From assembly GCA_944320975.1 (NCBI GenBank), contig CALUJM010000009.1:18484-82483 (forward strand): a stretch of DNA of 64,000 nucleotides. The letters are read 5' to 3'. The notes under the pieces are model-generated. The model was not told the DNA's origin. It did not search any database and saw only the letters and a program-made list of their open reading frames with translations. Below are positions 2,054-61,179 of the stretch, one piece after another. The position numbers were made by a program, and so were the translations under genes. Positions within the stretch are counted from its first letter, which is position 1, and every line of letters starts with the position of its first letter. Source of the stretch: an uncultured Atopobiaceae bacterium. Lineage in GTDB: Bacteria > Actinomycetota > Coriobacteriia > Coriobacteriales > Atopobiaceae.

Positions 2054-2848
2054 TTGGACACTACGATCATCGACGACTCCCACCGCAGCATCGCCGGGGC
2101 CGAGACGGCCATCACCATCCGCGACTTCGACCTGTGGTACGGGGACTTCCAGGCTCTCAAGAAGGTCAATCTTGAGATTCCGCGCAACCGCGCGACGGCC
2201 TTCATCGGCCCTTCCGGCTGCGGCAAGTCCACGCTGCTGCGCACGTTCAACCGCATGTGCGACTTCGTGGAGTCCGTGCGCACCGAGGGCACGATCGAGT
2301 TCGACGGCAAGGACATCTTCAAAATGGACGCCAACGCCCTGCGCGTGTACGTGGGCATGGTCTTCCAGCACCCCAACCCCTTCCCGATGAGCATCCGCGA
2401 GAACATCCTCTACGGGCCCAAGCGCATGCGTCGCATCTCCAAGTCCGAGGGCGACGAGATCTGCGAGCGCTGCCTCACTCGCGCCGCGCTCTGGGACGAG
2501 GTCAAGGACGACCTCAACAAGAGCGGCCTGGGGCTCTCCGGCGGCCAGCAGCAGCGACTCTGCATCGCGCGCGCCCTTGCCACCGACCCCGAGATCCTGC
2601 TCATGGACGAGCCCACCTCGGCCCTCGACCCCATCTCCACGAGCATGGTCGAGCAGCTCATGTGCGAGCTCGCCGAGGACCACACCGTCGTCGTCGTGAC
2701 CCACAACATGCAGCAGGCCACGCGTGTGGCCGACAAGACCGCCTTCTTCTACCTGGGCGAGCTCGTCGAGGAGGGCCCCACGCGCGAGCTCTTCGGCAAC
2801 CCCAGGCAGAAGCGCACGCAAGAGTACCTATCCGGGAGGTTCAGCTAA
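2054..2848 (+). CDS. pstB: Phosphate ABC transporter ATP-binding protein PstB (copy 2)
   Basis: 264-aa ORF with Walker [19 protein letters not shown] and ILLMDEP. It is a tandem paralogue of the preceding gene. Confidence 0.9.
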
Positions 2849-3543
2849 TGGTCATCAGCACCCGCACCAAGTTCACCGACCAGCTCAACGACGTCGAGGG
2901 CTACATCAGGCGCTTCGGCGAGAAGACCGTGTCCGACATCCGCGCAGCGGGCCTCGCCGCCCGTGGCGACAAGGGGGCGGCCGAGGGCGTCATGGACGGC
3001 CGCAAGGCGGAGGATCGCCTGCGCTCGGCCATCGAGAACACCTGCCTCGACATCATGCTGCTCCAGCAGCCGCTCATCGGAGTGGACCTGCGCTTCGTCT
3101 CGGGCGCCTTCCGCATGGTGAGCGACCTCTCTCACATCGACTCCATGACGCGTGACGCGGTCTTTCTCACCGAGGAGATCCCCGAGAAGGCTTCGGCCAA
3201 GATCGAGGCCGAGATCTCGCGGATGAGCGAGGGTGCTGCGGACATGGTCCAGAAGGCCGTCGACGCCTTCTGCGCCTCTGACGTCGAGGGCGCGCAGCAG
3301 GTCATGGAGGCCGACGCCGCCATCAACGCGCTGTACGTCGAGGTCGAGGAGAAGCTCGTCGCCCTCATCCGCGACGGCAAGTCCTCCGCGCAGTACCTGC
3401 CGGAGCTCCTCATGGTGGCCAAGTACTTCGAGCGCATCGGCGACCTCGCCAAGCGCATCGCCGCGTGGGCGATCTTTCGCGTGACCGGGGAGCACACCAT
3501 CGCCGAGAAGGAGAGCCAGCGACAGGCGCCTGCGGCGGAGTAG
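2848..3543 (+). CDS. phoU: Phosphate signalling regulator PhoU
   Basis: ATG 2848 overlaps the pstB stop (TAATG). The protein has a two-repeat PhoU architecture ending in ...AKYFERIGDLAKRIAAWAIF. Confidence 0.9.
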   Translation: MVISTRTKFTDQLNDVEGYIRRFGEKTVSDIRAAGLAARGDKGAAEGVMDGRKAEDRLRSAIENTCLDIMLLQQPLIGVDLRFVSGAFRMVSDLSHIDSMTRDAVFLTEEIPEKASAKIEAEISRMSEGAADMVQKAVDAFCASDVEGAQQVMEADAAINALYVEVEEKLVALIRDGKSSAQYLPELLMVAKYFERIGDLAKRIAAWAIFRVTGEHTIAEKESQRQAPAAE

Positions 3544-3584
3544 GGTACAGTAGGGTAGGTATCGAGTATCGGGAAGGAACAGCG

Positions 3585-4265
3585 GTGGTCTACTACGTAG
3601 AGGACGACAAGAACATCCGAGAGCTGACGGTCTACGCCCTCGGCCAGGGCGGCATCGAGGCGCGCGGCTGCGCCGACGACGCCGAGTTCCGTCGTGCCTG
3701 CGCCGAGCGCACCCCCGACGCCGTCCTTCTCGACATCATGCTGCCGGATGCGGACGGGCTGGAGATCCTTGCCCGCCTGCGCCGCACCCCCGGGCTCTCC
3801 CACGTCCCCGTCATGATGCTCACCGCCAAGGATACCGAGCTCGACACCGTCAAGGCGCTCGACTCCGGGGCGGACGACTACCTCTCGAAGCCCTTCGGCA
3901 TGATGGAGATGGTGAGCCGCACGCGCGCGCTGCTGCGTCGCTCCGGCCGCGAGACCGCCGTCCAGGAGAAGCCCGCCTCCCTGGTCTCCGGCGACGTGAC
4001 CCTGTGGCCTGACCGCCGCGAGGTCACCGCCGGGGACCGGGAGGTCCAGCTCACGATGCGCGAGTTCGACCTCCTGGAGTTCCTCATGCGCTCGCCGGGC
4101 GTCGTCTTCTCGCGCGAGACGCTGCTCCAGCGCGTCTGGGGCTGGGACTTCGACGGCGGCTCCCGCACCGTCGACGTGCACGTGCAGCAGATCCGAGCCA
4201 AGCTCGGCGACTCGTCGGACCTTATCGAGACCGTGCGCGGCGTCGGTTATCGCGTCCGCGGATAG
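3585..4265 (+). CDS. OmpR/PhoB-family response regulator
   Basis: GTG 3585 is preceded by GGGAAGGA. It has a receiver domain (VYYVEDD...LLDIMLPDADG...MLTAKD) and a winged-helix C-terminus (RTVDVHVQQIRAKL...TVRGVGYRV). Confidence 0.85.
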   Translation: MVYYVEDDKNIRELTVYALGQGGIEARGCADDAEFRRACAERTPDAVLLDIMLPDADGLEILARLRRTPGLSHVPVMMLTAKDTELDTVKALDSGADDYLSKPFGMMEMVSRTRALLRRSGRETAVQEKPASLVSGDVTLWPDRREVTAGDREVQLTMREFDLLEFLMRSPGVVFSRETLLQRVWGWDFDGGSRTVDVHVQQIRAKLGDSSDLIETVRGVGYRVRG

Positions 4266-4269
4266 GTGC

Positions 4270-4378
4270 GTGTGACAATTAGGACTGGTGCGACAATTGG
4301 GACAGGTTGAATTGTCACATAGGTACGATGTGACAATTCAACCTGTCCCAATTGTCGCACCAGTCCTAATTGTCACAC
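4270..4378. repeat. Family A palindrome, copy A1: perfect 50-bp arms, 9-nt loop, between response-regulator and kinase genes
   Basis: GTGTGACAATTAGGACTGGTGCGACAATTGGGACAGGTTGAATTGTCACA, loop TAGGTACGA, then the exact reverse complement. I verified the arms base by base. Confidence 0.95.
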
Positions 4379-4388
4379 CGAGAGGGGG

Positions 4389-5786
4389 ATGTCCATGACC
4401 AGGCAGCCCGGGCGCAAGGGCTCGCTCTCGCACAGGATGTTCGTGGCGTTCGTCGTGGCGTGCGCCAGCGTGGCCGTCGTGGTTACCACGGCGGCCTCCC
4501 TGCTCTATCAGTCCGCCTTCCTCGTCGACGAGCACGAGCAGCTCGCCGCCGAGTGCCGGACCCTCGCGTCGCTTCTCGACCAGACCGACGATGATGCGGC
4601 GGTCCTCTCGGCGCTCGAGCTCGGCGACATCCGCGCGACGCTCATCGACCCCGACGGCTCGGTCACCTTTGACTCGCAGGCCGACGCCGGCACGCTGGAG
4701 AACCACGGCGACCGCCCCGAGGTGGTCGCCGCCTTCGAGACGGGCTCCGGCGCCTCCGAGCGCGCGAGCGACACCGTTGGCTACACCAGCCTCTACGAGG
4801 CTGAGCGCCTCGAGTCGGGCCAAGTCATGCGCCTGTCCGTCGACCGCGCCGGCGTCCTGGCGTTCCTCTTCCAGGACCTCGTCCTTCTCGTCCTGCTCGC
4901 CGTGGTCCTGGTGGCCGCGAGCTGGGTGATCTCGCGCCGGCTCTCGCGGCGCTTCGTGCAGCCGATCCTCGAGATCGATCCGTCCTCCGGCGACGGGGTG
5001 GCGCCCTACGTGGAGCTCGACCCCCTCGTCACGCGCCTGAACGAGCAGCACGAGGAGCTCCTTCACCGCATGCGCGCGGTCCAGGACGCCGCCGACCTGC
5101 GCCGCGAGTTCACGGCAAACGTGACGCACGAGCTCAAGACGCCCATCGCGTCCATACAGGGCGCGGCAGAGCTCATACGCGACGGCATCGCCAAGAAGAA
5201 GGACGTCCCCGAGTTCGCCGGGCGCATCTACGATGACGCGCGACGCCTCTCGGACCTGGTGAGCGACATCCTCACCCTCTCCAAGCTCGACGACTCCGAG
5301 CGCAACGGCGACCAGGAGCTCTTCGAGCCCTCCGAGACCGTCGACCTGCTCTCGGTGGCGCGCGACGTGACCGACCGCCTGGGGCCCAAGGCGCGCAAGG
5401 TCGGCGTCGGCGTGAGCGTGGGCGGCGTTTCGTGCCCCGTGCGCGGCAACGCGCGCCTGATCGACGAGCTCGTGACCAACCTCTGCGACAACGCCATCCG
5501 CTACAACCGCGTGGGCGGCAAGGTCTACGTCTGGGCGCTTCCCGTGGACGGGCGCCCGGCGCTGCGCGTGAGCGACACGGGCATCGGCATCCCCGCCGAG
5601 GCCCAGCCCAAGGTCTTCGAGCGCTTCTACCGCGTGGACAAGGGGCGGAGCCGCGACATGGGCGGGACGGGCCTGGGCCTTGCCATCGTCAAGCACGCGG
5701 CCGCCTATCACGACGCGGAGATCAAGCTCGAGAGCGAGATCGGCAAGGGCACCACGATCACCGTGCTGTTCCCGTCGGCGGCGTGA
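4389..5786 (+). CDS. Sensor histidine kinase (PhoR/SenX3-like partner of the preceding regulator)
   Basis: Contains two TM segments, an H-box (FTANVTHELKTPIASI), an N-box (CDNAIRYN) and G-boxes (DTGIGIP, GGTGLGLAIVKH). Confidence 0.85.
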   Translation: MSMTRQPGRKGSLSHRMFVAFVVACASVAVVVTTAASLLYQSAFLVDEHEQLAAECRTLASLLDQTDDDAAVLSALELGDIRATLIDPDGSVTFDSQADAGTLENHGDRPEVVAAFETGSGASERASDTVGYTSLYEAERLESGQVMRLSVDRAGVLAFLFQDLVLLVLLAVVLVAASWVISRRLSRRFVQPILEIDPSSGDGVAPYVELDPLVTRLNEQHEELLHRMRAVQDAADLRREFTANVTHELKTPIASIQGAAELIRDGIAKKKDVPEFAGRIYDDARRLSDLVSDILTLSKLDDSERNGDQELFEPSETVDLLSVARDVTDRLGPKARKVGVGVSVGGVSCPVRGNARLIDELVTNLCDNAIRYNRVGGKVYVWALPVDGRPALRVSDTGIGIPAEAQPKVFERFYRVDKGRSRDMGGTGLGLAIVKHAAAYHDAEIKLESEIGKGTTITVLFPSAA

Positions 5787-5874
5787 GCGCCTGACGCCGC
5801 GTCCTTCTTAAGAAAACCTGTCAGGTTTCGCCCCTTCGTGCGTATCGTAGGTAGAGACGACGAGGGGAGGGGAC

Positions 5875-6381
5875 ATGCGCGCGAAGAAGCAGGCGGTGAG
5901 GTTGGTCAATGACTACGCCGACCTCATCCTGCGCCTCTCCTACACCTATCTGGGGTCGACTGCCGACGCCGAGGACGTTTGCCAGGAGGTCCTCCTCAAG
6001 CTGCTGGGTCGCGCCGAGGGCTTCGAGGGCCCCGAGCACGAGCGCGCCTGGGTGGTGCGCGTGACGGCCAACCACTGCAAGGACCTGCTGCGCCGCCGCG
6101 CCGCGCGGCCGACCGTCGCGCTCGACGAGGCGCCGGAGCCTGCAGCGCCCGAAACCGTCGATGCTCGCGGGCGCGCCGAGCTCGTCCTGCGCGCCGTCAT
6201 GCGCCTCCCTCTCGAGTACCGGGAGGCCATCTTCCTGCGCTACTACGAGAACTACTCCGTTCGTGACATCGCCCGGGCGTGCGGCTGCGGCGAGGACGCG
6301 GCCGCCGCGCGCCTGAGCCGCGGCCGCGCAAAGCTGAAGGTGCTGCTCAAGGAGGCTGGTTACGATGAAGAAGACCTTTGA
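5875..6381 (+). CDS. ECF-type RNA polymerase sigma-70 family factor
   Basis: 168 aa. It has region 2 (DAEDVCQEVLLKLL...ERAWVVRVTANHCKDLLRRR) and region 4 (LEYREAIFLRYYENYSVRDIARACGCGEDAAAARLSRGRAKL). Confidence 0.85.
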   Translation: MRAKKQAVRLVNDYADLILRLSYTYLGSTADAEDVCQEVLLKLLGRAEGFEGPEHERAWVVRVTANHCKDLLRRRAARPTVALDEAPEPAAPETVDARGRAELVLRAVMRLPLEYREAIFLRYYENYSVRDIARACGCGEDAAAARLSRGRAKLKVLLKEAGYDEEDL

Positions 6382-9179: not shown

Positions 9180-9201
9180 GACCCAAATCCGGATTTGGGT
9201 C
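9180..9201. repeat. Family B short palindrome (GACCCAAATCC|GGATTTGGGTC), copy B1
   Basis: A perfect 22-nt palindrome. Confidence 0.9.
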
Positions 9202-9292
9202 CGCCGCCGTGGGGGCCGCTGGGGCTGATCGTTTTTATCGATGAACAACTTAGCCCTGGAGTTGACCTCGCAGCCAAGACGCGCTGCGCTGA

Positions 9293-9387
9293 CCGAGAAG
9301 TGCCCACCACTTCGGACCCAAATCTGGATTTGGGTCCGCCCAGAACCCAAATCCTGATTTGAGTCCGAAGCCGAGGGCACTTCTCGG
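9293..9387. repeat. Composite palindromic block: family B copies B2 (9313-38) and degenerate B3 (9342-67), bracketed by the 12-bp inverted repeat CGAGAAGTGCCC / GGGCACTTCTCG
   Basis: CGGACCCAAATCTGGATTTGGGTCCG followed by AGAACCCAAATCCTGATTTGAGTCCG. The outer inverted repeat lies at 9294-9305 / 9375-9386. Confidence 0.85.
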
Positions 9388-9477: not shown

Positions 9478-9501
9478 GGACCCAAATCCGGATTTGCGTC
9501 C
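9478..9501. repeat. Family B short palindrome, copy B4
   Basis: GGACCCAAATCCGGATTTGCGTCC (1 mismatch). Confidence 0.85.
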
Positions 9502-9558
9502 CGGGCAGGGACATTTCTCGGTTGCCAGGTGCTTCCTTCTGCTATGCAAAACCTCGTT

Positions 9559-27512: not shown

Positions 27513-27537
27513 CTGTCAAAAGGGGACGTGACGGGCT

Positions 27538-27582
27538 GTGACAATTAGGGCAGGTGACAATTTAACCTGTCCTAATTGTCAC
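27538..27582. repeat. Family A palindrome, copy A2 (short form)
   Basis: GTGACAATTAGGGCAGGT, loop GACAATTTA, then ACCTGTCCTAATTGTCAC (1 mismatch). It lies after the ferritin gene. Confidence 0.85.
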
Positions 27583-27635
27583 GCCCCAACTGTCACGCCC
27601 GCCGCTTGTGGAGATAATCTGGCGAGAAAAACCCG

Positions 27636-32299: not shown

Positions 32300-32336
32300 A
32301 ATGATTCAAAAGGGGACTGTCCCCAATTGAATCATT
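32300..32336. repeat. Family H hairpin spanning the ilvN stop / ilvN-ilvC spacer
   Basis: AATGATTCAAAAGGGGAC-T-GTCCCCAATTGAATCATT (2 internal mismatches). It has the same GGGGACTGTCCCC core as 31201-17. Confidence 0.85.
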
Positions 32337-36600: not shown

Positions 36601-36660
36601 ACTCTACGCGCGCCGTGTTTCCGGGGCGTAATCGCCCGCGAACGGCAACGTTTCGCCTCC

Positions 36661-36786
36661 GAGCGGTGAGACGGTGGGGACCCAAGTGACCCAAATGGGG
36701 ACAGGATACTTTTGGGACATCTGCTCGGATGTCCCAAAAGTATCCTGTCCCCATTTGGGTCACTTGGGTCACACTGTCTCACCGCT
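36661..36786. repeat. Long palindromic element (family C, left flank of the Y1 transposase)
   Basis: Outer stem GAGCGGTGAGAC / GTCTCACCGCTC. Inner arms are GACCCAAGTGACCCAAATGGGGACAGGATACTTTTGGGACATC and its complement, around loop TGCTCG. Confidence 0.9.
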
Positions 36787-36847
36787 CGACGTGTACGCCC
36801 TTCCCTCTTTTGGGTATCAGGAAAGGACCGGGGGGAGAGGAGGCGGC

Positions 36848-37588
36848 ATGCGTACGGCGCGGGCGATTTCTAAAAGCGGGTACTATCACGTCATCCTGCG
36901 GGGCGACGGCAAGCGGCAAATCTTCGAGGATGACTTCGACAGGAGGGCGTTTCTCGGCCTCGTGGAGAGCTGCCTCGTCGCTCGCGGGGTCGACGTTGTC
37001 GCCTGGTGCCTCATGAGCAACCACGTGCATCTTGTGGTCTGCGACACTGAGGAGAACCTGAGCGAGGCCGTCGGCTCGCTCGCCATGCGCTACGCGCGGC
37101 GCTTCAACGCGCGGACCGGTCACGTCGGGCACGTATTTCAAGAGCGGTTCAAAAGCTCTCCCATCGAGAGCGACGCATATCTTCTCGAGGCTGTCCGCTA
37201 TGTTCACAACAACCCTGAGAAGAGCGGCATCTGCCGTGCCGAGGAGTACCCCTGGAGCAGCTACTCGGAATATGTCGCGGGTCCAAAGATCTGTGATACG
37301 GAAGTCATTCTTGACATGCTTGGCGGGGTGGAAGGCTTCAAGGAGTTCTGCTCCGCTGCGCCCTCGACTATCTATAGGTTCACGGGTCATGTGAGGATTC
37401 CCGACGACGAGATGGGGGAAGTGGCGAGGTCTGCGCTCGGAGACGTCTCCGTTTACGACGTGAGGGCGCTCCCGGCGGGCGAGAGAAACGAGAAGCTTCG
37501 CGCTCTTCGCGAATGCGGGCTCTCTGTCCGTCAAATTGAGCGGCTTACGGGGATTGGGGCCAAGACCATCACGCGAGCGACAACGTGA
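36848..37588 (+). CDS. IS200-like Y1 (HUH) tyrosine transposase, REP-associated (RAYT-like), with C-terminal HTH-like tail
   Basis: HUH motif in CLMSNHVHLVVC. Catalytic Tyr motif in AVRYVHNNPEKSG. N-terminus YYHVILRGDGKRQIFEDD. ATG 36848 follows GAGAGGAGG. The stop TGA lies inside the right hairpin. Confidence 0.85.
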   Translation: MRTARAISKSGYYHVILRGDGKRQIFEDDFDRRAFLGLVESCLVARGVDVVAWCLMSNHVHLVVCDTEENLSEAVGSLAMRYARRFNARTGHVGHVFQERFKSSPIESDAYLLEAVRYVHNNPEKSGICRAEEYPWSSYSEYVAGPKICDTEVILDMLGGVEGFKEFCSAAPSTIYRFTGHVRIPDDEMGEVARSALGDVSVYDVRALPAGERNEKLRALRECGLSVRQIERLTGIGAKTITRATT

Positions 37589-37691
37589 CCCAAATGACCC
37601 AAATGGGGACAGGATACTTTTGGGACATCCGAGCAGATGTCCCAAAAGTATCCTGTCCCCATTTGGGTCCCCATTTGGGTCATTTGGGTCA
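37585..37691. repeat. Long palindromic element (family C, right flank of the Y1 transposase)
   Basis: TGACCCAAATGACCCAAATGGGGACAGGATACTTTTGGGACATC, loop CGAGCA, then the complement with one extra CCCCATTTGGGT unit. Confidence 0.9.
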
Positions 37692-44892: not shown

Positions 44893-44925
44893 GCCGCGGA
44901 CCCAAATCCGCATTTGGGTCCGCGG
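44893..44925. repeat. Family B palindrome, copy B5 (15-bp stem, loop CCGC)
   Basis: GCCGCGGACCCAAAT-CCGC-ATTTGGGTCCGCGGC. Confidence 0.9.
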
Positions 44926-45028: not shown

Positions 45029-45060
45029 CTCCGGACCCAAATCCGCATTTGGGTCCGGAG
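45029..45060. repeat. Family B palindrome, copy B6 (14-bp stem, loop CCGC)
   Basis: CTCCGGACCCAAAT-CCGC-ATTTGGGTCCGGAG. Confidence 0.9.
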
Positions 45061-45167: not shown

Positions 45168-45221
45168 GGACCCAAATCCGGATTTGGGTCCGCCGAGAAC
45201 GCAAATGAGGATTTGGGTCCC
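45168..45221. repeat. Family B palindromes, copies B7 (45168-91) and degenerate B8 (45195-221)
   Basis: GGACCCAAATCCGGATTTGGGTCC followed by GAGAACGCAAATGAGGATTTGGGTCCC. This is the same intact-plus-degenerate doublet layout seen at 9313-9367. Confidence 0.85.
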
Positions 45222-51558: not shown

Positions 51559-52010
51559 CGGGCGAGAACAGCCACGACTCGGCGCGACGGTCTGCACGCT
51601 GGGCCGTCGCGTTTGCGTGCTGGGTGGCGTTCGTCTGGTGCCACTCCCTCGTCCAGGGCCCTCAGTCCTCGCTCGAGAGCGGGCTTGTCGTCACGCTCGT
51701 ACGCCCCGTCTTCGAGATGCTCGGCGTCCATGACGCAGACCTCATGTCGCTTCTCGTCCGCAAGGCCGCGCACTTCTCGGAGTACGCGGTGCTCGGCGTG
51801 CTTGCACGCGGCCTGTTCTCGACGCTGCGTTCCGAGAAGGGAGTGCGGCCGTTTCCGGCGGCGCTGCTCGTCGCCCTCGTGCCGATCGTCGACGAGTGCA
51901 TCCAGCTCTTCGTCCCCGGGCGTTCAGGACAGCTGACGGACGTCCTTCTCGATCTCTCCGGCGTCGTTGCGGGCGCCCTGCTCGCACATCTCGTCGCGCG
52001 TGACGATTAG
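51555..52010 (+). CDS. VanZ-family membrane protein
   Basis: 151 aa with 4 TM helices and a typical VanZ core (RKAAHFSEYAVLGVL...DECIQLFVPGRSGQLTDVLLD). The last codons and the stop lie inside palindromic repeat A3. Confidence 0.75.
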   Translation: MTGENSHDSARRSARWAVAFACWVAFVWCHSLVQGPQSSLESGLVVTLVRPVFEMLGVHDADLMSLLVRKAAHFSEYAVLGVLARGLFSTLRSEKGVRPFPAALLVALVPIVDECIQLFVPGRSGQLTDVLLDLSGVVAGALLAHLVARDD

Positions 52011-52068
52011 GACAGGTTGGATTGTCACGCGCTCTCGGTGTGACAATCCAACCTGTCCTAATCGTCAC
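52000..52068. repeat. Family A palindrome, copy A3: perfect 29-bp arms
   Basis: GTGACGATTAGGACAGGTTGGATTGTCAC, an 11-nt loop, then GTGACAATCCAACCTGTCCTAATCGTCAC. The left arm contains the VanZ stop codon. Confidence 0.95.
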
Positions 52069-57227: not shown

Positions 57228-57410
57228 TTTGAGGTGCGGGAGATGGACGTTTTCAAGGCGCAGGCCGTCCATCTCCCGCACCTTAACGGTTGGGGTGCGG
57301 GAGATGGACGGCCTGGGAGGGAAAAGTGTCGCGCAGCCGCACCTTTCCCCTTGAGGTGCGGAAACTGGACGATTTGATGGGGAAAAACGTCGCGCGGCCG
57401 CACCTCAACG
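57228..57410 (+). repeat. Family F array F2: three tandem ~61-nt hairpin units
   Basis: The units begin (G)AGGTGCGG and end CCGCACCT(C/T)AACGG. Unit 1 has a perfect 17-bp stem GGTGCGGGAGATGGACG / CGTCCATCTCCCGCACC. Confidence 0.9.
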
Positions 57411-61051: not shown

Positions 61052-61060
61052 CGTCGATCG

Positions 61061-61142
61061 CGCGTGACAATTAGGACAGGTTCCATTGTCACGCGCGGCG
61101 CGCAGCGCCCGTGACAATGGAACCTGTCCTAATTGTCACGCG
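61061..61142. repeat. Family A palindrome, copy A4: perfect 29-bp arms (32 with flanks)
   Basis: cgcGTGACAATTAGGACAGGTTCCATTGTCAC, an 18-nt GC loop, then GTGACAATGGAACCTGTCCTAATTGTCACgcg. It lies between hom and ask. Confidence 0.95.
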
Positions 61143-61179
61143 CGGAACCTCTCACCCCAGGAAGACAAGGATTTCTCGC

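Follow-up and report, generated by a model that had tools for sequence, protein, structure and literature searches.

A perfect palindrome between the regulator and kinase genes of a pst-linked operon as one copy of an abundant, apparently undescribed hairpin-forming repeat family of Olsenella-like gut bacteria

Described repeat systems and the palindrome of the regulator-kinase spacer

To our knowledge, repeat-transposase systems of the REP/REPIN type are known almost only from Proteobacteria. In these REP/REPIN/BIME-RAYT systems short hairpin monomers occur together with inverted dimers, which fold as long hairpins, and with clusters; hundreds of extragenic copies lie near gene 3' ends, and the accompanying Y1/HUH genes are single-copy, vertically inherited, located at fixed sites and flanked by inverted repeats (10.1101/2021.07.10.451892; PMC6006769). 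The repeats and genes described below are alike in these respects. According to published surveys, association with REPINs is limited to two RAYT groups (10.1101/2021.07.10.451892), and HTH-bearing Y1 proteins of subclass 2.1 are reported to lack REPs in their vicinity (PMC6006769). A likeness also exists with the TIR repeats of TIRtrons/TIRYT (Di Nocera et al., 2013; PMC3733652), where a RAYT-like gene is bounded by inverted repeats with the GGGGWSAS motif, represented here by GGGGACAG, and where the flanking repeats belong to a dispersed family of monomers, dimers and clusters, an arrangement that we found here as well. The published TIR repeat families are moderately abundant, and Atopobiaceae names are absent from the main text of the paper that describes them (PMC3733652).

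MITEs such as Correia, RUP and ERIC are similar to our repeats in being small, non-autonomous, intergenic, hairpin-forming upon transcription and able to alter the expression of their neighbors. As for the location, Mycobacterium tuberculosis provides a parallel with the MIRU repeats of its senX3-regX3 spacer, i.e., dispersed repeats within a phosphate-responsive two-component operon of an actinobacterium. MIRUs, in contrast, are non-palindromic: they consist of direct repeats in tandem, carry short coupled reading frames and are not known to be linked to a Y1 transposase. Both MIRUs and the element studied here are intercistronic repeats of a phosphate two-component operon, whereas only the latter is a palindrome.

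The element in question, further referred to as element A, lies at positions 4270-4378 of a 64,000-nt stretch of DNA from an uncultured Atopobiaceae bacterium (the window; contig CALUJM010000009.1), and its host is a chicken-gut bacterium. An earlier note on this DNA had described a perfect palindrome with 50-bp arms. The palindrome is indeed perfect and 109 nt long, but its arms (4270-4320 and 4328-4378; 100% complementarity) measure 51 nt each and enclose a non-palindromic 7-nt centre, AGGTACG (4321-4327). The very stable hairpin expected from such arms is borne out by comparison with shuffled sequences: the minimum free energy is -102.9 kcal/mol as RNA (z = -15.2; none of 200 shuffles as stable) and -64.6 kcal/mol as DNA (z = -20.9; shuffles nowhere near). 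A single arm can fold on itself, as had been proposed, albeit weakly (-10.1 kcal/mol as DNA). We also recovered the previously noticed sub-repeats, which take the form of two 18-nt direct units per arm, with GTGACAATT/AATTGTCAC at the start and end of the arm. The whole element has the form >><<, in which a canonical 69-nt dimer composed of a monomer, a loop and an inverted monomer (4290-4358), alignable with 36 other copies, is enclosed by one mirrored 18-nt unit per side. The left outer unit, GTGTGACAATTAGGACTG, spans 4270-4287 and is mirrored at 4361-4378 by the right one, CAGTCCTAATTGTCACAC, which is missing from the 95%-identical chromosome OZ006999.1. At the Rfam gathering score, tRNAs alone pass in the window and element A has no match; its sub-threshold matches to eukaryotic miRNA hairpin models, obtained on both strands, are a generic artefact of long hairpins, and an Rfam search of element A in E-value mode gave nothing meaningful.

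The gene context confirms a pst-linked two-component operon with the order pstC-pstA-pstB-pstB-phoU-RR-[element A]-HK. Two tandem pstB-type ATPase genes (1244-2041 and 2054-2848) follow pstA, and phoU (2848-3543) precedes the regulator gene; a simple longest-ORF reading overlooks the first pstB and phoU. The OmpR/PhoB-type response regulator is encoded on the forward strand at 3585-4265, with a GTG start after GGAAGGAA and a TAG stop at 4263-4265. The hairpin begins at the fifth base after this stop, with 4 nt in between. A putative purine-rich ribosome-binding stretch, GAGAGGGGG (4380-4388, forward strand), begins 1 nt (4379) past the 3' foot of the hairpin and is followed by the PhoR/PnpS-like histidine kinase gene (4395-5786, forward strand), whose ATG at 4395 aligns with the start used in relatives. 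An in-frame ATG at 4389, the kinase start used in the earlier note, is the alternative; the 10 nt given there as the spacing before the kinase start hold for ATG 4389, while the distance from the end of the hairpin to ATG 4395 is 16 nt.

Filled and empty alleles of the regulator-kinase site

Comparison of the spacer among relatives, a check suggested in the earlier note, revealed that the element is no universal part of this junction. Besides the window, the site is filled in two genomes. In OZ006999.1 (L072), it holds the canonical 69-nt dimer, whose loop is identical to that in the window, and a partial left outer unit, but no right one, and two arm positions differ from the window, each change being mirrored on the opposite arm. 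In the Olsenella MAG SI.B29, where DNA of the kinase region is about 74-77% identical, we found a degenerate 79-nt copy. In turn, the site is empty in a human-gut contig (L095) from a closer-than-genus relative (regulator DNA 87% and kinase protein 79% identical to those of the window), which reads TAG-19 nt-ATG with AGGAGG within the 19 nt. More distant relatives have an 11-nt or overlapping regulator-kinase junction, and further empty junctions were detected in low-depth contigs of two other samples. Since some genomes carry a copy at this site and others do not, element A is an insertion between the two cistrons, just as the earlier note had proposed. The junction into which it was inserted was ancestrally tight and probably coupled in translation. 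No target-site duplications were found when filled and empty sites were compared. One pair of filled and empty sites was also seen for a monomer of the same repeat family.

The site also varies among strains. An allele with a 14-nt outer unit is present in DNA runs, and two metatranscriptomes contain a collapsed allele of about 32 nt, in which position 4280 is joined to 4365. The latter joint is absent from the four DNA runs examined, and the collapsed form may represent either a real strain allele or a reverse-transcriptase skip. As judged from these sequences, element A appears to be inherited within a subclade, with its length apparently still changing. Such length variation with near-identical flanks argues against a strict need for the 109-nt form.

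A dispersed palindromic repeat family of Atopobiaceae

We found that element A is not specific to this particular operon but is one copy of a dispersed family, further referred to as family 1, which fills many other spacers. In the window, GTGACAATT occurs nine times versus 0.1 expected, at four intergenic loci, and three family-1 copies are present besides element A. These are the short element B (27533-27587, with its GTGACAATT matches in 27538-27582) between a ferritin gene and infC, the canonical 69-nt element D (52000-52068) and element C (61059-61144) between hom and the aspartate kinase gene (lysC). Element D gives a VanZ-like gene its last codons and stop; the gene ends with ...ARDD-TAG within the element (51999-52010), so that coding sequence is derived from the repeat unit. 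Element B is exactly inverted in situ with respect to OZ006999.1 (L005 3949-3996), with unchanged flanks, which is a case of an imperfect palindrome flipped between its terminal repeats.

A public scan of one genome per species with GTGACAATTRGGRCWGGT as a query, which gave at least 94 stretches, revealed at least 80 family-1 copies in Atopobiaceae genomes, in Olsenella and Thermophilibacter. Among the matches listed, all multi-copy ones are from Atopobiaceae, with several Olsenella species, Thermophilibacter mediterraneus and, above all, OZ006999.1 as their sources. The latter is a complete MAG chromosome of 2.77 Mb, about 95% identical to the window over the overlapping stretches, and it carries at least 45 elements in 37 sampled 8-kb tiles located from 16 kb to 2.75 Mb. 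At least 82 elements were counted across the window and the Atopobiaceae tiles. The high copy number is also reflected in DNA metagenomes holding the organism, where the depth of inner-arm k-mers is 10-16 times that of the flanks. Element A had no match in plasmid, phage and viral-contig collections, and our literature searches turned up no paper describing repeats of this kind from Olsenella or Atopobiaceae. Element A thus belongs to a hairpin-forming repeat family that is abundant in Olsenella-like gut bacteria and apparently undescribed.

The family-1 monomer is 29 nt long and reads GTGACAATT-AGGACAGGTTr-AATTGTCAC. Free monomers also occur, yet the commonest form is the 69-nt inverted dimer with a variable loop of 8-11 nt (43 of the 82 elements counted); other forms include mirrored multi-unit (>><<, >>><<<) and asymmetric (>><, ><<) ones. 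When 37 dimers were aligned, 98.7% of the cells in the 31 arm pairs were paired, and changes on both sides were seen in 9 of the 31 pairs, values matched by none of 500 shuffles. Such family-wide pairing and covariation indicate that perfect complementarity is a property of the family and not of element A on its own. Identical loop sequences are present at unrelated loci in both orientations, which implies that whole elements are copied in a copy-and-paste manner. In about 40% of copies the palindrome extends into the flanks; some of these extensions are remnants of older units starting with GTGAC, others are copy-specific, and a few resemble A-tract/GC-stem/T-tract terminators (copies L033 and L014). 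We infer that the extended flanks reflect a preference for existing hairpin tips as insertion sites, with central deletions occurring later.

Family 1 is almost entirely intergenic (63 of the 64 copies with classifiable neighbors). The intergenic copies lie between tandem (47), convergent (14) and, in two cases, divergent genes, with a background of 221, 48 and 45, respectively. About half of the copies overlap the upstream stop codon or sit within 15 nt of it, and often the element makes up nearly the entire spacer between two co-directional genes. The regulator-kinase gap is, therefore, a typical niche for family 1. The preference for gene 3' ends and convergent gaps, together with the 9-bp inverted repeat spaced by 11 nt in each arm, which would suit a dimeric binder, and the terminator-like flanks of L033 and L014, could also be expected of an immobile host-function site, be it a binding site of a nucleoid or regulatory protein, a bidirectional terminator or an uptake-type signal spread by recombination. 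We regard this as quite unlikely, because identical loops at unrelated loci and the filled and empty orthologous sites speak for the copying of whole elements, many copies reside within operons, where termination would be harmful, and just 2 of the 63 intergenic copies are found in divergent promoter regions, unlike what is expected of an operator.

Several other repeats were observed in the course of this survey. Hybrid nested elements with family-1 cores are present in OZ006999.1 (L032 7321-7473 and L079 413-610); their outer units come from other families (GTGACCCAAATAGGGACAGG; GTGACAGTTGGGGCGG) and they comprise up to five mirrored layers, 198 nt in total. In the Olsenella MAG SI.B29 (L038 6523-7421), two inverted family-1 monomers surround a lower-GC insert of about 0.8 kb, which is bounded by direct repeats of about 45 nt and contains a nucleotidyltransferase substrate-binding (HEPN-like) gene (Pfam NTase_sub_bind, 114 bits). 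Another dispersed short palindrome, GGACCCAAATCCGGATTTGGGTCC, is clustered in two long intergenic regions of the window (9181-9203, 9314-9337 and 9479-9502; 44898-44921, 45034-45057 and 45168-45191), and two further palindromic repeats lie at 32300-32336 and 57229-57344. One of these two, AATGATTCAAAAGGGGAC/GTCCCCAATTGAATCATT, resembles the repeat flanking a second transposase paralog (see below), while the other is a repeated GGTGCGGGAGATGGACG hairpin.

A Y1/HUH transposase as the candidate mobiliser

Apart from the repeats, the window encodes on its forward strand a Y1/HUH tyrosine transposase of the REP-associated type (36848-37588), which we consider a candidate mobiliser. IS200 and E. coli RAYT sequences served as bait only, and the matches were verified with Pfam, NCBIfam and a PDB profile. 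The protein passes the Pfam Y1_Tnp cut-off of 23 with 50.5 bits (52.5 for a second protein tested). The best NCBIfam model was REP_Tyr_transpos, with 63.0 and 66.6 bits, below its curated cut-off of 80. In an alignment of 19 sequences the HUH histidines and the tyrosine in RY(I/V)HxNP are invariant, and the only PDB match of the resulting profile was E. coli TnpA-REP (4ER8); a single-sequence PDB search with the transposase gave no match. The Y1 proteins are of about 246-252 aa and possess a C-terminal tail with a weak HTH match. Their homologs number hundreds to thousands, the listed ones being from Coriobacteriia where the organism is named, and some are called RayT by JGI. Most public contigs carrying these Y1 genes (P0001-P0240) are about 0.9-1.3 kb in size, which suggests that assembly is interrupted by the repeats flanking the gene on either side.

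The ortholog of the Y1 gene is found at the same ilvD-gene-PALP position in Thermophilibacter and Candidatus Olsenella avicola, and a paralog occupies the ABC-gene-NAD synthase position in several genomes; such fixed chromosomal positions fit vertical inheritance. Terminal inverted repeats bound the Y1 genes in the window and at L057, L175, L180 and L189. In the window, the gene is located between two nested palindromes, a left one (36660-36788), whose 43-nt perfect arms are enclosed by an outer pair of the GTGAGAC type, and a right one (37586-37691) with a loop inverted relative to the left. They belong to family 2, GTGACCCAAATGGGGACAGGATACTTTTGGGACATC, which is related to family 1. The transposase stop TGA (37586-37588) falls within the GTGAC of the flanking repeat. 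The dispersed palindrome GGACCCAAATCCGGATTTGGGTCC resembles the outer feet of family 2 (GACCCAAAT...ATTTGGGTC) joined without the centre. In Thermophilibacter, the ortholog lies between inverted monomers GTGAGACGTTGGGGACAGGTTCATTTGTCTCA, which have 18 consecutive bases, GGGACAGGTTCATTTGTC, in common with family-1 variants. The flanks of a third paralog and its orthologs consist of GTGACAGTGGGGACAGAGCG plus GTGACAAAGCCTCCGACCCCTTGTCAC, and units of this type are found as outer layers of family-1 elements. GTGAC/GGGGACAG repeats of other kinds also flank Y1 paralogs. Overall, GGGGACAG, which fits the GGGGWSAS motif (PMC3733652), is present in the repeats flanking all three Y1 paralogs and their orthologs, whereas family 1 itself has (A/G)GGACAG, one base short of this motif.

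The repeats flanking the clade's three Y1 paralogs are thus related to family 1, yet distinct from it, and none of the three, in a genome that was partly sampled, is flanked by canonical family-1 GTGACAATTAGGACAGG units. As a consequence, the link between the enzyme and the family is one that we infer from sequence: a Y1 enzyme probably mobilises family 1. Its mobility as such is suggested by the filled and empty sites and the shared loops.

With respect to the described systems, the 29-nt monomer corresponds to a REP, i.e., an imperfectly palindromic unit of 20-40 nt with many extragenic copies, and family 1 forms inverted doublets that fold as one hairpin, as REPINs do. However, the foot of REPs is GT[AG]G or CGTC (PMC6006769; PMC3733652), while all family-1 copies have GTGA(C). 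The Y1 proteins found here do not reach the cut-off of the curated RAYT model, are longer and have the HTH-like tail. Moreover, the described REP/REPIN-RAYT hosts are nearly all Proteobacteria, whereas the host of family 1 is a Gram-positive member of Coriobacteriia, and the mirrored multi-layer growth of family 1 is unlike REP/REPIN.

A MITE that descends from a DDE-type insertion sequence and relies on the transposase of that element would likewise account for the terminal inverted repeats, the small size, the many copies and the intergenic niche, as well as for the roughly 0.8-kb cassette between two inverted monomers in L038. MITEs such as Correia, RUP and ERIC have target-site duplications or known DDE parents, and neither was seen for family 1: filled sites differ from empty ones by no target-site duplication, the flanks being often inverted repeats instead, and no transposase gene or parent IS with these ends was found in the window or the 94 tiles. 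Free monomers, mirrored layers and Y1 genes with related repeats also fit the REP/TIR-repeat pattern better, and we hold a MITE origin to be very improbable. Instead, element A is likely a copy of a dispersed, non-autonomous REP/REPIN- or TIR-repeat-like family of Atopobiaceae that is mobilised by Y1/HUH enzymes, with any effect on the operon as a by-product.

Probable origin of element A and its possible effect on the operon

According to the model that we favor, Y1/HUH tyrosine transposases of the REP-associated type would mobilise family 1 on single-stranded DNA. In an ancestor of the clade a copy would have inserted downstream of the regulator stop codon and ahead of the kinase ribosome-binding site, and would have been inherited since, while changing through gain and loss of units. 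The identity of its arms may be maintained by intrastrand templated correction or selection for pairing, alone or in combination. Once transcribed, the copy would form a 51-bp hairpin, with 4 nt between it and the stop and 1 nt between it and the ribosome-binding site, and would break the ancestral tight coupling of regulator and kinase. Possible outcomes are a kinase level lowered relative to the regulator, or a regulator level lowered via ribosome stalling at the stop; any such effect on expression would be a by-product and not the reason for the existence of the element.

An effect of element A on the regulator:kinase ratio is plausible, although its direction is unpredictable from sequence. 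By analogy with E. coli, where ribosome stalling is caused by REPs that lie no more than 15 nt from a stop codon (Liang et al., 2015, cited in PMC12306157), the hairpin could stall terminating ribosomes on the regulator message. It is also plausible that the 51-bp duplex is cleaved by RNase III and that it blocks 3' exonucleases. Transcript data at the locus consist of assembled metatranscriptome contigs. These contigs break in the palindrome, their depth steps inside the regulator gene (about 4106-4133) and not at element A, and the runs labelled RNA have a flat, DNA-like depth at the locus.

The hairpin fits precisely into the gap from the stop codon to the ribosome-binding site, which might suggest, along the lines of the earlier note, a dedicated regulatory device of the pst-linked operon (an attenuator, RNase III site or 3' stabiliser) under selection for a given regulator:kinase ratio. 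The occupancy of the site in at least three diverged genomes, where arm pairing is preserved by compensatory changes, and the stalling of ribosomes by E. coli REPs near stop codons, as referred to in PMC12306157, could be read in the same manner. Yet the same element fills many unrelated spacers, and its arm pairing is family-wide; strains with near-identical flanks carry alleles of differing length, and a 19-nt spacer suffices in close relatives. Also, the idea of an intrinsic terminator found no support, as the stem is followed by CCGAGAGGGGG and no terminator-like site or U-tract is present in 3400-6000, nor did a promoter scan detect a promoter-like site in the region of element A. The steps in contig depth lie elsewhere than at element A. 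We thus consider a purpose-built device unlikely.

Returning to the Y1-mobilised repeat family, a fuller scenario, which we put forward tentatively and with some doubt, is that family-1 elements constitute a large, undescribed, vertically inherited REPIN-like population of Atopobiaceae, which would be driven by HTH-bearing Y1 enzymes, a class reported to lack REPs, grow by mirrored layering, insert preferentially at hairpin tips, both of terminators and of older copies, and routinely fill gaps between stop codons and ribosome-binding sites, with some copies, such as element A, co-opted for setting cistron ratios.

With these results, the idea of a unique, purpose-built regulatory palindrome gives way to that of a repeat-family copy, in a Gram-positive gut lineage. 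Several related families of repeats occur there, together with several Y1 paralogs that occupy conserved positions on the chromosome, and filled, empty, inverted and length-variant alleles are present in natural populations. This lineage would offer a second, independent setting for studying how such elements move and persist, and what a 50-bp hairpin does within an operon, for which the natural alleles at the regulator-kinase site (109 nt, 69 nt, collapsed and empty) make up a ready-made allelic series.
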